DNA of 34,112 nucleotides, taken from positions 1-34,112 of the IMG/VR virus record IMGVR_UViG_3300012663_000275; one strand, 5' to 3'. The position numbers and the translations under genes are program-made. Shown here in pieces: positions 345-13,777 of this stretch (position 1 is the first letter of the stretch; every line of letters begins with the position of its first letter). A model generated the notes under the pieces. It saw only the letters and a list, made by a program, of their open reading frames with translations. It made no database searches and was not told the DNA's origin. The stretch comes from a virus. Its lineage: Duplodnaviria; Caudoviricetes.

Positions 345-680
345 TGTTTATTTTACAAGGTAAGTCCTACCCCGGACCTGCTGTTTTTTAGGCAGCTAGA
401 GCAACTTTGCTTTTGCCAGTAACAGAGTTACCAGTGAAGCTCATTGCGCTGAAGTCGAATGTATCTGCGTTTGCATTTACGAGTTTTGCTTGATTAACGG
501 TCATCGCCTACCGTGTTGCCGTCTCTATTATCTCACCCTGTCGAAACCATGGCAGGCCCATCAAAAACGCACTACAAGGTTGCCCATTATTAAGAGGGGT
601 GTAGTGCCCTTTTGGTGGACCTGGCGGGAGTCGAACCCGCGTCCAGAATGCCTTCACTTTGAAGGGATTACAACAATTCT
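345..680 (-). ncRNA. ssrA: Circularly permuted (two-piece) tmRNA
   Basis: Minus-strand order: acceptor piece (~680-613; T arm GCGGG-TTCGACT-CCCGC, then CAGGTCC-A-CCA), intervening hairpin (612-560; GCACTACA/TGTAGTGC), coding piece starting GGGCCTG-CCATGGTTTCGAC at 559. The 7-bp acceptor stem has the G3:U70 alanine identity pair. P2 pairing CAGGGTG/CATTCTG. Tag frame at 474-388. Downstream pseudoknot GTCC-GGGGTA-GGAC-TTACCTT. Outer ends are approximate. Confidence 0.95.
388..474 (-). other. tmRNA tag reading frame: (A)ANADTFDFSAMSFTGNSVTGKSKVALAA*
   Basis: Resume codon GCA after GTAAAT; 28 codons plus TAA; AN- start and LAA end typical of ssrA tags; stop codon lies in a CTGC...GCAG hairpin. 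Confidence 0.9.
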
Positions 681-749
681 TTAAAAAATGAAATGTATTA
701 CTAGAAATGTAATCAGTAATACTGTTACAATAAATTCATACGCTTTCAC
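681..749 (-). CDS. Possible 22-aa single-pass membrane peptide (MKAYEFIVTVLLITFLVIHFIF)
   Basis: GTG-start ORF filling the cspA-ssrA gap, almost entirely hydrophobic; no clear SD. Confidence 0.35.
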   Translation of the reverse strand: MKAYEFIVTVLLITFLVIHFIF

Positions 750-766
750 TTTTGTATTCTTACACG

Positions 767-970
767 TTAGGCAGCTTGAATATTACTGGCCTGGGCGCCT
801 TTAATACCTTGCGTGACTTCAAACGTTACCGATTGACCTTCTTGCAAGCTTTTGAAACCCTGTGATTGAATCTGTGTGAAGTGTGCAAATAAATCTGCGC
901 CACCGTTATCAGGAGTAATGAATCCAAAACCTTTGGCATCATTAAACCATTTTACTTTACCTGTTACCAT
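767..970 (-). CDS. cspA: Cold-shock protein (CSD RNA chaperone)
   Basis: [15 protein letters not shown] (RNP1) and LFAHF (RNP2); 67 aa. Confidence 0.97.
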
Positions 971-1023
971 TATTACTATTACCTTTTTAAAAAATTAATG
1001 TTTAGTCTGTGTGTAATTTTAAA

Positions 1024-1128
1024 TTACTTCTTGCGTTTCACCGCACGTTTAGCCATTGCATTTACTGTCTTTGGCTTCGGCGGCTTTTTGCCTTTAAGGA
1101 TCTGACTAACCCGACGTGGACTAGGCAT
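1024..1128 (-). CDS. Basic micropeptide 4, 34 aa (MPSPRRVSQILKGKKPPKPKTVNAMAKRAVKRKK)
   Basis: ATG 1 nt after the previous stop; SD-like GAGGA upstream; shares the C-terminal motif of the three neighbouring ORFs. Confidence 0.75.
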   Translation of the reverse strand: MPSPRRVSQILKGKKPPKPKTVNAMAKRAVKRKK

Positions 1129-1129
1129 T

Positions 1130-1204
1130 TTATTTCCTCTTCTTTAAACTGCGTCTTGCTGTGGCAGCAACTGAACGCTTGTGATGGGCTTTGAATTTAG
1201 CCAT
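1130..1204 (-). CDS. Basic micropeptide 3, 24 aa (MAKFKAHHKRSVAATARRSLKKRK)
   Basis: ATG 2 nt after the previous TAA; shared K/R-rich C-terminal motif. Confidence 0.72.
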   Translation of the reverse strand: MAKFKAHHKRSVAATARRSLKKRK

Positions 1205-1206
1205 GA

Positions 1207-1275
1207 TTACTTACGCTTCCGTAGTTGGCGGCGAACTGCTGCTTTTATACTACCGTTTTTTGCTCTGTATGCCAT
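1207..1275 (-). CDS. Basic micropeptide 2, 22 aa (MAYRAKNGSIKAAVRRQLRKRK)
   Basis: SD AAGGGG 10 nt upstream of ATG; shared motif. Confidence 0.75.
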   Translation of the reverse strand: MAYRAKNGSIKAAVRRQLRKRK

Positions 1276-1293
1276 TTTTAATTTCCCCTTAAA

Positions 1294-1359
1294 TTAACGT
1301 TTTTTTCTAGTTGCTCGTTTTGCAGCACTTTCCATTGGTGTTGGTTTTTTACGTGACAT
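1294..1359 (-). CDS. Basic micropeptide 1, 21 aa (MSRKKPTPMESAAKRATRKKR)
   Basis: SD GGAGA 7 nt upstream; an alternative in-frame ATG at 1380 lies just after TAAATA; shared motif. Confidence 0.75.
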   Translation of the reverse strand: MSRKKPTPMESAAKRATRKKR

Positions 1360-1384
1360 AGTTGTATCTCCGTTGTTCATAGTG

Positions 1385-1390
1385 TATTTA
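1385..1390 (-). promoter_or_regulatory. T4-like late promoter (TAAATA) for the micropeptide-cspA-ssrA unit
   Basis: Same hexamer recurs before about 19 genes in the window. Confidence 0.6.
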
Positions 1391-1645
1391 ACTATCTTTT
1401 TGCTGAGTTGTCAAGAGTTTTGTATTTAAAATCATGTTCTCTGTAACCAATTTAGTAATTGTAGCTAATAGTATTAGCTTGTCATCTTCTGTGATGACGT
1501 CTTTGTCGAATTGATCAAGTATGCTAGAACCAATCATGCCCATGGCTTGTTCTTTACCATTGGTAAAAACTCCCCAATCTATTGGGTCGCCTTCTTCGTG
1601 TGCAAATGCAACTTCGCACAGTTCTCGTAATGTTATTTTAGCCAT
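1388..1645 (-). CDS. Hypothetical protein, 85 aa
   Basis: ORF with SD GAGGA, overlapping the upstream stop. Confidence 0.75.
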   Translation of the reverse strand: MAKITLRELCEVAFAHEEGDPIDWGVFTNGKEQAMGMIGSSILDQFDKDVITEDDKLILLATITKLVTENMILNTKLLTTQQKDS

Positions 1646-2044: not shown

Positions 2045-3061
2045 TTATTTGGCTGCAAGGTCTTGCAGCCCCTGTGAGTAAGTAGCATTGTTTAACAGAG
2101 TTAACACTTGTTTTCTGTTACCGGCTTTGCTGAAGCTAACGTGTATCCAGGGCAGTCTAGTGCCTGTGGTTTTGTACTCAAGCAATAATTGATCATAGAT
2201 AATATTGTCTTTGATCCATAAGGCTATGTCGTAGTAGTCGGACTTCTGAACACCGCGGAACTGTAGATCTGCTGCCTGACCCAGTGGATGTTGGCTTCGA
2301 GGATTGCCAGACGGCGGGCGCCATGTATTGGTAATAAAGGAATTTGGATACTTAGCACGAATAGGTTCTAGACAGTTGATGGCTAGGAGTTTTAGATTAC
2401 AAACTGTTTCACCTAGTGACAATACTGATACTGCCGCGCTTAATGGATTGTCAAAAGATACGTGTGGCTTGCGTGTTAACTTGCCTACTGTATAATTTGT
2501 ACTTAATACAACTGCTTCTAATGCTGCACCAGAGAGTGGTGGCAAAGCGGGAGGTTGTACAATAAGTTCAACACCGCCGCAGGCTGTTGTTGGAGTACCT
2601 GTAAATTTACTAGGTGTCTTGTTGACATTTTTAGTAGCGGGTGGGTCAGCCACTGCTTGTTCTCTTTTACTGATAACTCCATTTTTCTTTAATGCCTCAA
2701 ATCGTTTCTTTCCTTCGCCGGGTGTGTATGTATCTTCTTCATCTGCTTCAACTACCTGTCTAATACTAGGAATATCTTGATCAATGTCGTCGCCAACAAA
2801 TACGTTGGCACTACCGCCTACACGCTGCGGACCACCTGCATCGTTGTTGCCTGTGTAGTTAAATGGCTGATTATGAACAAGTACTGCTCTACTCCCATTT
2901 GCTGTTTTATCGGTAGCAGAGAAAGGAACTAATACCCCAACGTCACTGGTATTAACGGATACCAATAGATTATTTGCATACACGGTTGTATTGCCATCAG
3001 TCTTGATGACAATCTTTCCCGCAGTGTTTGCATCTTTAAAACGTTGGGCGGGTTTTACCAT
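2045..3061 (-). CDS. PAAR-like spike-tip domain fused to a peptidase M15A (Zn-dependent, LAS-type) domain
   Basis: N-terminal GSRAVLVHNQP...GD-like...GGSANVFVGD PAAR-type repeats; C-terminal WR...SQHPLGQAAD...WIHVS metal-binding motifs. Confidence 0.75.
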   Translation of the reverse strand: MVKPAQRFKDANTAGKIVIKTDGNTTVYANNLLVSVNTSDVGVLVPFSATDKTANGSRAVLVHNQPFNYTGNNDAGGPQRVGGSANVFVGDDIDQDIPSIRQVVEADEEDTYTPGEGKKRFEALKKNGVISKREQAVADPPATKNVNKTPSKFTGTPTTACGGVELIVQPPALPPLSGAALEAVVLSTNYTVGKLTRKPHVSFDNPLSAAVSVLSLGETVCNLKLLAINCLEPIRAKYPNSFITNTWRPPSGNPRSQHPLGQAADLQFRGVQKSDYYDIALWIKDNIIYDQLLLEYKTTGTRLPWIHVSFSKAGNRKQVLTLLNNATYSQGLQDLAAK

Positions 3062-11789: not shown

Positions 11790-11818
11790 ATTATATTATA
11801 ATACTCTATGTATGTCAA
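11790..11818 (-). promoter_or_regulatory. sigma70 consensus promoter (leaderless exonuclease mRNA)
   Basis: TTGACA-17-TATAAT-5 nt-ATG. Confidence 0.8.
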
Positions 11819-12216
11819 GCCGCAGGTACTGGAGGAGTTTGTGATTGTTGTGCTAACTGTGCAGGGGCTGCACTAGCTGCCATTTGATTGACAGCGTTTT
11901 GGCTGTCTTCACCTGGCTCAAGTTCTGGATTGTCGACTTCAACTCCCGGAACGTTTAATTGGATAGTATTAACATTAAAGTCTAAGATCAAGGCCTTCAT
12001 AGGCTCTGGCAACTTGTCATAGATCGATTTGAACACTTCGTAGTCAGCGGCCATTTCATAACCTTGACCACGCATCATTTCAGCAAAGCCCTGCCAATTG
12101 AATTGTGTTTCATCTTTATGAATAGCTGCCGTGCCGATATAATTCTTTAATGCTAGAATGAATTTATCAAGTGGTTGTGCGTCACCCTCTTTTAACTTTA
12201 TTTCGTAGAATCTCAT
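11815..12216 (-). CDS. Hypothetical, probable head-associated protein
   Basis: MRFYEIKLKE leader; ATGA overlap with the upstream gene. Confidence 0.7.
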   Translation of the reverse strand: MRFYEIKLKEGDAQPLDKFILALKNYIGTAAIHKDETQFNWQGFAEMMRGQGYEMAADYEVFKSIYDKLPEPMKALILDFNVNTIQLNVPGVEVDNPELEPGEDSQNAVNQMAASAAPAQLAQQSQTPPVPAA

Positions 12217-12578: not shown

Positions 12579-13777
12579 TAGCCTGCCAACACTTTCATTA
12601 AACGGCTTGAACGATCAATGCTTTCGCGTTGCTCACGTCCTGCTGTTTCAGCGCCGCCGATTGCTGGCTCAGCTGCTGCAAAGTCGTCTTCTGGTGCAGC
12701 AAACTCATCTGGAACTTCGCTGTCTGGATTCATTGTGTCGTCTGGTGCAGGCTCCATTTCTGGCTCCATGTCTGGTGCAGGTGCACCTAGCATTTCTTCT
12801 GGTTGTTCTTCGCCTGTTAGACCGCGAACACCCGATGCCATTGTTTCTCTAGTTTGTTTTAATGCATCTAGTGATTGTTGAATAGCCGGAGCAACAGAGC
12901 TTAAGAATGCCTTGGCAGACTCTTGGCCCATTTCGTCACGGATACTATCGCCCAATGTCAGCAATGTATCATTTTCCATGCCCGATAGTTCTTCAATCCA
13001 ACGGCCTACTTTGTCTACCATGCTCTTAGCAGATACAACAGCCGATGCTTTGTTTAATTCGCTTTCGTTAATTCTTGTCATGTTTGATCCTTTAGTTTGT
13101 TTGTTTTCCTGAACAGGCTGTCCTGTTTCAAAATCGTAGCTATCGTAGATACCATAGTCTTCGTCACTGCCATGTCCAGCTGATGCTAAAGCATCTGCAT
13201 CGTCACTGCTGTCGTATGAACCACTTGGTTCATTATCGTCATCCATTAAACCCATGTCTCTTAAGTCATCAGCAAACAACTGGCTAATTTCGCCATCGTC
13301 ATCTGAATCACGTTGGGCTTTACCGCTTAACTGATCATAGTAATAATGATGTAGATCAGTTTCTAGATCGTAGTCTAGGTCGCCACCAGCGGCAAAATCT
13401 TTGACTGCTTGTTGATTATTTGCAATAATTCTTTCTAGATGATCGCGACCTTCGTCAATCGAAACTTCTTCAGTTTCAATACCTTGGAACATGCTAGCAG
13501 GATCGCTTTCTTCCATGGCTACTTCTGTTCTATCGGAAATTTCTTGATTGATAATATCAAGCATCCATTGTGTTTTAACGTGTGCTTCGCTTTCAACGGT
13601 TTCGTTGAAGTTAGCATCGCTTTTCATTGTGTGTTGTTGAGTGCGTAGTCTATTTCTCGCATCTTCTAGTTGTGGCAGCGTAAAACTCTCAAGGTTCATC
13701 TTTTGGCCGTATGTCTTGCCAAAGCTTTCGTTGAGCTTTTTAGCTGTCGGTTTGTTAAACATGTCAATTGTTCGCAT
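12578..13777 (-). CDS. Acidic hypothetical protein, possible prohead core/scaffold
   Basis: 399 aa, very D/E-rich, multiple (L/I)xE sites, late promoter at 13801-13806. Confidence 0.7.
   Translation of the reverse strand: MRTIDMFNKPTAKKLNESFGKTYGQKMNLESFTLPQLEDARNRLRTQQHTMKSDANFNETVESEAHVKTQWMLDIINQEISDRTEVAMEESDPASMFQGIETEEVSIDEGRDHLERIIANNQQAVKDFAAGGDLDYDLETDLHHYYYDQLSGKAQRDSDDDGEISQLFADDLRDMGLMDDDNEPSGSYDSSDDADALASAGHGSDEDYGIYDSYDFETGQPVQENKQTKGSNMTRINESELNKASAVVSAKSMVDKVGRWIEELSGMENDTLLTLGDSIRDEMGQESAKAFLSSVAPAIQQSLDALKQTRETMASGVRGLTGEEQPEEMLGAPAPDMEPEMEPAPDDTMNPDSEVPDEFAAPEDDFAAAEPAIGGAETAGREQRESIDRSSRLMKVLAG

Follow-up and report, generated by a model that had tools for sequence, protein, structure and literature searches.

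PhiX174 J, baculovirus P6.9 and adenovirus mu are protamine-like viral peptides that condense DNA. Peptides of this kind, as presented in PMC6163548, are very small, virus-encoded, rich in lysine and arginine and nearly free of acidic residues. The peptides reported here share these properties and may also be expressed late, but differ in that up to four unrelated-looking paralogues stand in one array, in being accessory, strongly conserved and mostly located outside structural modules, and in having no sequence match to the former. The T4 internal proteins known as IPI, IPII and IPIII, also basic and from a gp23-type phage, measure 8–20 kDa, have a capsid-targeting propeptide of 10 residues, bind to DNA when salt is low and are poorly conserved across relatives according to PMC9026906, whereas the peptides here measure 2.5–4.5 kDa and have no propeptide. 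Among ribosomal proteins, bS22/mS38, eL41 and bL37 are comparable in length (21–40 aa), in their richness in lysine and arginine and in being likely helical; however, profiles of bS22/mS38 and eL41 found no match in five records, and the peptides are confined to phages, where they lie in shuffled arrays. Large freshwater phages are also described in PMC9723584 as encoding bS21, another small basic product with expression linked to late infection. That gene is a captured host ribosomal gene, whereas the peptides have no detected cellular homologue in GTDB and among protein representatives, both searched with family D only.

The DNA analysed, hereafter the window, is the whole stretch of 34,112 nucleotides of IMG/VR virus record IMGVR_UViG_3300012663_000275 (Duplodnaviria; Caudoviricetes). 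An earlier note, made from its letters, had read four tiny minus-strand ORFs in an apparently intergenic stretch as phage micropeptides that bind ribosomes or nucleic acid. The features concerned are collected in Table 1.

Table 1. Coordinates of the micropeptide array and associated features in the window.
Feature	Position	Strand	Details
Terminator-like hairpin after the tmRNA	341-316
Permuted two-piece tmRNA, betaproteobacterial type	388..725	minus	RF04321 388-675, 145.7 bits; RF01850 420-725, 139.2 bits; ARAGORN
Cold-shock domain protein (cspA-like)	767..970	minus	PF00313, E 3e-29
Peptide family D	1024..1128	minus	34 aa; decamer at the N-terminus invariant, then a Lys/Pro linker and a basic C-terminal helix
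Peptide family C	1130..1204	minus	24 aa; no SD; start 2 nt past the stop of B
Peptide family B	1207..1275	minus	22 aa; SD-like site upstream
Peptide family A	1294..1359	minus	21 aa; SD GGAGA at 1371-1367
TAAATA, predicted phage late promoter	1390-1385	minus	Overlaps the sigma70-like pair; the ORF upstream has its stop codon in it
Predicted sigma70-like pair, TTGACA - 17 nt - TTAAAT	1414-1409 and 1391-1386	minus	Absent from the earlier note
Conserved ORF of no known family, upstream anchor	1388..1645	minus	85 aa; 104 IMG/VR relatives, best 80 kept
Endolysin-like gene, upstream of the array	2045-3061		phrog_894
Member of the predicted winged-helix family	11815..12216	minus	Virion module; family profile E 8.6e-6, two-sequence search

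An array of four micropeptide genes

All four ORFs and their lengths are as the earlier note had read them, and so are the gaps of 18, 2 and 1 nt between them, the TAA stop that each of them has, and the three SD-like sequences, which precede the first, second and fourth. The four peptides contain a single acidic residue among them and have net charges of +8, +9, +10 and +13, while the DNA of their genes is as dissimilar as claimed, with best pairwise local alignments scoring only 7–10. With an in-frame ATG at 1380 the family A peptide would have 28 aa; the start at 1359 is preferred on account of the GGAGA site and of every relative. Translation of family C is probably coupled to that of B. 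Four such ORFs lie within positions 1001–1400, whereas among 2000 mononucleotide shuffles 1954 contained none, 46 contained one and none contained more; the remaining 33.7 kb of the window holds one comparable ORF. A non-coding array, or one of chance ORFs, is ruled out by these shuffles together with the dN/dS values given below.

Contigs from seven of the eight RNA runs examined, out of 24 listed, cover part of the array, the runs having been picked with the region and the contigs carrying neither strand, level nor timing; run X7 had no contig over the peptide genes, a gap that carries no weight. The contigs weakly suggest that the array is transcribed. The RNA runs also contain a strain variant at 1039 that is a synonymous change within peptide D, and at 1007, between D and cspA, they have an insertion of 2 nt.

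Peptide families and arrays across relatives

We examined 259 phage and metagenome loci, 130 of them with peptides, after excluding 11 bacterial or cultured-phage loci; the loci were selected by the searches and the families delineated by hand-made patterns, so that the numbers are counts of finds and not frequencies. Five families (A–E) were distinguished, comprising 137 distinct genes and 106 proteins of 21–40 aa with 41% K+R; family E is absent from the window. The genes form 75 distinct arrays of one to four genes in 22 gene orders (26 single, 37 double, 9 triple and 3 quadruple), and in each of six long records (905 kb) family peptides occur at a single place. Only 13 of the 2849 residues of the family proteins are acidic, and at least two K/R stand among the last four residues in 104 of the 106. 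A stop codon TAA ends 89 of 95 genes, and an SD-like word precedes 74 of 95. Families B and C have a conserved aromatic residue, the aromatic content of the families being 0–4%.

Sampling is uneven, with 5 genes and 4 proteins in family A and 39 genes and 32 proteins in family C. Pattern scans returned the expected peptide in 15/15 IMG/VR matches for C, and in 27/27 IMG/VR and 35/44 metagenome matches for B, and the family D N-terminus was present in 39/39 IMG/VR pattern matches. Three D variants (L112:2501-2620, L125:2501-2599, L097:2572-2649) keep at least the first 12 residues and then continue into a Ser/Lys-rich tail or end early; swapped or missing tails of this kind indicate that the N-terminal decamer can occur apart from the C-terminal helix.

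Frame conservation and dN/dS in relatives had been proposed as a check, and frames proved to be conserved, with pooled pairwise dN/dS of 0.09 (A), 0.12 (B), 0.19 (C) and 0.07 (D), hence 0.07–0.19 for the four families of the window, and 0.48 for E; the pairs are non-independent, and the set omits one N-containing B gene and three D genes that are aberrant. Without the pattern-constrained N-terminal columns the values were 0.12 for B and 0.10 for D. In family B, 11 distinct alleles of 78–98% nucleotide identity encode one identical 21-mer. The view of a diversified, conserved family of phage micro-genes, with a shared basic C-terminal helix and a copy number varying from 1 to 4, is borne out. 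The genes are real and subject to purifying selection; they can replace one another in number and order, and they move from one genome neighbourhood to another.

The common C-terminal signature described for the four peptides stands as a shared basic helix but is looser than claimed: profile comparisons link B with C, C with D and D with E above all 40 column shuffles, whereas A and B are at chance, 17 of 40 shuffles scoring as high.

Genomic neighbourhood and promoters

The array had been described as heading a cspA–tmRNA unit. This description holds only in part. Of 49 arrays, 31 have a tmRNA downstream at a distance of up to 1.2 kb (up to 350 nt in 26) and 18 have none there, and cspA comes as near as 500 nt in only five. 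The 85-aa anchor led to 40 distinct loci, of which 30 have a tmRNA and 4 have peptides, and 26 of the 30 tmRNA-bearing loci carry no peptides there. The peptides are accessory, occurring at 4/40 anchor loci, and cspA is a frequent cargo of the same slot and no obligatory partner. The slot between the 85-aa ORF and the tmRNA (window 700–1390; L001–L080) is a cargo hotspot, which may hold cspA, small membrane proteins, a conserved ORF of ~100 aa, a His-rich secreted-looking protein or nothing. A DUF454 gene also lies upstream of the array in the window. Other arrays stand before iscU, beside a DNA ligase gene or within the virion module (neighbours named by eye).

Several observations concern the tmRNA itself. 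The tag peptide of the window tmRNA (388–474, minus strand) is unusually long, at 28 aa, with a 45-nt insertion relative to RF04321, and related long tags occur in L014, L016, L029 and L058. Partial permuted-tmRNA matches were seen at L171:6001-6183 and L269:5001-5068, in the cultured Xanthomonas phages BUDD, X1 and XacN1, where they are unannotated or lie under ‘hypothetical protein’. About 1.6 kb past the array of L088, ARAGORN calls a tRNA-Pyl with an amber anticodon, possibly a suppressor tRNA.

The TAAATA that the earlier note had taken for a promoter is present upstream of the array. It is a probable late promoter, because it also stands upstream of the virion and tail genes of the window, at 13777 and 11083, and because the T4 late promoter resembles it. 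TAAATA lies within 70 nt upstream of 25/49 arrays against 55/265 ORFs of one long record, and the sigma70-like pair upstream of 23/49 arrays against 27/265, a loose comparison since the background of 265 ORFs includes operon-internal genes. Translation would proceed from a dual early/late promoter.

The carrier phages

The carriers are uncultured freshwater phages of the gp23 type and of ~350 kb, a genome size that derives from the completeness estimates of four long records; of five related long records, one holds gp23 itself. The nearest cultured NrdA shows 60% identity, and the virion module of the window shares synteny with its counterpart in Salmonella phage PHA46. Judged by the tmRNA alone, the host would be betaproteobacterial; a phage tmRNA may derive from another lineage, as argued in PMC9004378. 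A search for cultured carriers in INPHARED gave no match for the DNA of D, for the whole array or for a B peptide, apart from one rejected D match (E 7) antisense to annotated genes, and the stretches of BUDD, XacN1 and PHA46 that were examined contain no family peptide.

Searches for known families

Pfam, PHROGs, NCBIfam (0/19 peptides) and PDB profiles returned nothing significant, in searches whose HMMER filters drop weak matches of 20-mers. Pfam scans of the peptides found no Hc1 domain (PF07432). Broader searches were made with family D only. Its profile found eight matches among 1.84 billion representatives, all of them D-like or miscalled D and none a cellular homologue, the longer ones appearing to be miscalled starts or frameshifts, and 0/7 matches of the D pattern in GTDB were genuine. 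A fusion to a large protein was also rejected: the 468–470-aa members of D's protein-collection cluster are membrane proteins without the peptide (three inspected), a clustering artefact. Weak leads comprise a match of D to Pfam HTH_3 (E 0.01) and, in the ESM Atlas, clusters that are either helix-turn-helix or without a name, none above 0.84, which are a lead at most. The C profile resembles Dap1b at E 0.89, and one C member (L147:2425-2496), chosen after the profile match, resembles the N-terminal part of Dap1b at E 0.067; these E values are not significant and the similarity is probably due to chance, with no match to the DAP family in Pfam scans of 18 C members.

A predicted winged-helix protein of the virion module with the same helix

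The one specific likeness to a longer protein leads to the virion module. Of the 120 homologues of a ~112-aa phage family listed among 126 matches, 117 end in the motif V-x-x-[AM]-A-x-[RKS]-A, and this phrog_15050-like predicted winged-helix protein, from Rak2-like and uncultured freshwater jumbo phages, has the helix V-x-x-[AM]-A-K-R-A-x-K in common with families D and A and partly with C. It differs from the peptides in its winged-helix domain of ~85 residues, which is absent from peptides spanning 21–40 aa, and in its N-terminal Glu motif, present in 116 of the 120 homologues listed and in no peptide as a propeptide; Glu occurs within the first 12 residues of only 4/80 peptides (family A), at position 10, just before the helix. 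In one near-identical pair of loci (L123/L140), D directly follows a 114-aa gene (L123:2148-2489) that ends in the same helix.

A matrix of the terminal helix scored above the peptides' own shuffles at p<0.01 in 27/31 D and 4/4 A peptides and at p<0.05 in 11/22 C peptides, but mostly missed B (1/15) and E (2/8). The matrix rarely scored elsewhere: at least 12 bits were reached by 3 of 1281 ORF C-termini, all of them members of the winged-helix family, and by 4 of 1437 natural K/R/A-rich 12-mers, none of which reached 20 bits, as against 24/31 and 18/31 D peptides. Profile comparisons of D or A with the terminal helix also exceeded all 40 column shuffles. A common ancestry of the peptide families and this helix is likely, going by the profiles, but not proven, because column shuffles remove helical periodicity, which flatters helix–helix matches.

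An AlphaFold model of a family protein (pLDDT 72) has winged-helix topology and places the terminal helix on a low-confidence linker. The top rows of a structural search were mostly winged-helix domains, the best Z of 7.3 falling below the tool's mark of 8, and close structural relatives occur solely in uncultured phages. We predict that this virion-module family of ~110–130 aa combines a winged-helix domain and a terminal helix that is free. It is probably related to the phrog_15050 ‘virion structural protein’, with which it aligns modestly (hhalign E 8e-5, probability 61) and which has the syntenic position in PHA46. The window's own member, for which a search for further homologues gave one locus, has a non-basic terminal helix with the small-residue pattern; such an uncharged helix is also found in PHA46, in G005 and in a weak candidate of G001. 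A predicted complex in which D was joined to the winged-helix core and to the virion protein beside it scored 0.00, which is no verdict and counts neither way.

A second putative DNA-binding domain lies near some arrays. The chlamydial Hc1 protein has a Lys-rich tail; the phage version, of 64 aa, is tail-less. Its linkage to arrays is rare: the Hc1-domain gene (PF07432, E 6e-18; L118:2570-2761) directly precedes 2/49 arrays, and Hc1 occurs in two of five long records, at distances of about 2.3 kb and 25 kb to the array. Carriers of the gene are L118, L174 and L175.

What the peptides may do

The reading that we put first, tentatively and at somewhat less than even confidence, is that the peptides are DNA-binding helices standing on their own, by which phage DNA would be neutralised or compacted. 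The cationic peptides of 21–40 residues would act as independent nucleic-acid-binding helices, and the ~350-kb phage DNA would be bound, neutralised or compacted late in infection, as by the tail of a linker histone or a protamine. In trans, they may lend a basic tail to DNA-binding domains without one, namely the winged-helix protein and the Hc1 domain. The ligand would be a polyanion, and that polyanion may be DNA. The earlier note had kept protamine-like DNA condensation as its main alternative. We moved it to first place, since DNA-binding or virion proteins are what the single specific homology and the rare protein neighbours indicate; the sole specific sequence link, to a virion-module protein, does not show a function. 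Against this reading, the virion module contains only a minority of the arrays, 31/49 stand just upstream of a tmRNA, and about half also have sigma70-like promoters. The strict conservation (one 21-mer from 11 alleles, the invariant D decamer) suggests a specific partner and not bulk charge, the lack of a Glu-containing propeptide makes head targeting of the T4 style unlikely, and the presence of peptides in so few anchor loci implies a dispensable role.

Binding to ribosomes or tmRNA is, with its variants combined, a close rival and quite possible. The ribosome and tmRNA/tRNA readings come next in rank because of the adjacency to tmRNA and the strict conservation, with protein docking and host inhibition ranked lowest. 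In the ribosomal variant, which by itself seems unlikely, the peptides would be accessory ribosomal proteins of phage make, which occupy pockets or bridges of the rRNA in the way of bS22/mS38, eL41 or bL37, without homology to them, and tune or stabilise host ribosomes while infection lasts. Their size and charge fit the K/R-rich ribosomal peptides of 24–33 aa reported in 10.1101/2023.03.31.535098 and PMC12123416, and their conservation and the aromatic residue of B and C fit a structured RNA site. The frequent tmRNA downstream of the arrays, the 2–30 tRNAs and one tmRNA in each of the six long records, and the translation genes reported for huge phages in PMC7162821 are in line with such a role. 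However, the slot before the tmRNA is a general cargo site, from which the peptides are missing at most tmRNA loci, and the PDB, Pfam and NCBIfam searches and the search for cellular D homologues argue against it. Sequence kinship with eL41, bS22/mS38 or other ribosomal or rescue-factor families, which the earlier note had invoked, found no support, in tests that are insensitive for divergent 20-mers. At E<=10 the COX24_C profile (PF08213) for bS22/mS38 and the Ribosomal_L41 profile (PF05162) for eL41 matched 0/5 array-bearing records, as against 4/14 and 8/14 control genomes, none of the latter over the cut-off. The COX24_C profile also missed its Bacteroides control, so that divergent members can escape and its negative weighs little; the Bacteroidota bS22 sequence is described as different from the mycobacterial one (PMC12123416). 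Pfam, NCBIfam (19 peptides) and PDB profiles, which are insensitive for 20-mers, likewise matched none of bTHX, SRA/S22, bL34, bL35, ArfA, ArfB and the SmpB tails.

The shared helix could instead be a protein-docking motif, with which the peptides would mimic or compete with the winged-helix tail in head assembly or decoy a host defence sensor, an idea that we consider improbable. The small-residue face of the helix is kept without charges in PHA46 and the window homologue, a conservation that may mark a protein-docking helix; the model has the helix on a flexible linker, and an arms race would account for fast shuffling and a patchy occurrence. The near-total lack of acidic residues and the poly-K/R ends of almost all proteins nevertheless point to a polyanion, and no partner was identified.

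It is highly doubtful that the peptides are cationic RNA chaperones that fold or anneal the two-piece tmRNA or tRNAs, or stand in partially for SmpB. The closeness of 26/49 arrays to a tmRNA and the presence of cspA in the same slot speak for this role, as does the fact that SmpB was not found in five of five long records (four 32–72% complete, one listed as 100% with only 128 kb). Host SmpB is available, however, 18/49 arrays have no tmRNA close downstream, and most tmRNA-bearing relatives have no adjacent peptides. Membrane-active or host-inhibitory cationic peptides, serving as a lysis aid or for host shut-off (e.g. by exit-tunnel plugging like that of Dap1b), would fit cationic helices with an Ala-rich face and the endolysin-like gene upstream, but are very improbable given the low hydrophobic content and a Dap1b match that is non-significant and was picked post hoc.

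To return to DNA binding as the preferred role, a bolder and rather unlikely proposal of ‘tails in trans’ would have the helices split off from the virion winged-helix protein and form five interchangeable families. They would then make up, with the tail-less winged-helix and Hc1 domains, a phage chromatin of the linker-histone type, or else be phage-invented ribosomal proteins without a cellular ancestor.

Novelty and implications

These phage micropeptide families, with their unusual shuffled-array design, are apparently undescribed; in their putative function they would be kin to the small basic viral nucleic-acid binders. A search of the main texts of papers found none containing any of four peptide strings and no description of these arrays; the tables of a 2022 survey of small phage gene families may already list these families, without function. 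Genes this short are often missed: peptide A of the window is absent from a collection of 15 billion proteins, in which B and C are single-member clusters. The peptides are nonetheless under clear purifying selection in an uncultured clade, over dozens of its genomes; more than 4000 homologues exist of this clade's neighbouring virion protein, and a previously unannotated virion-module family gains a predicted fold. Because the peptides are short enough for synthesis, both the neutralisation or organisation of jumbo-phage genomes and the existence of ribosome-binding peptides of the phages' own become directly testable.
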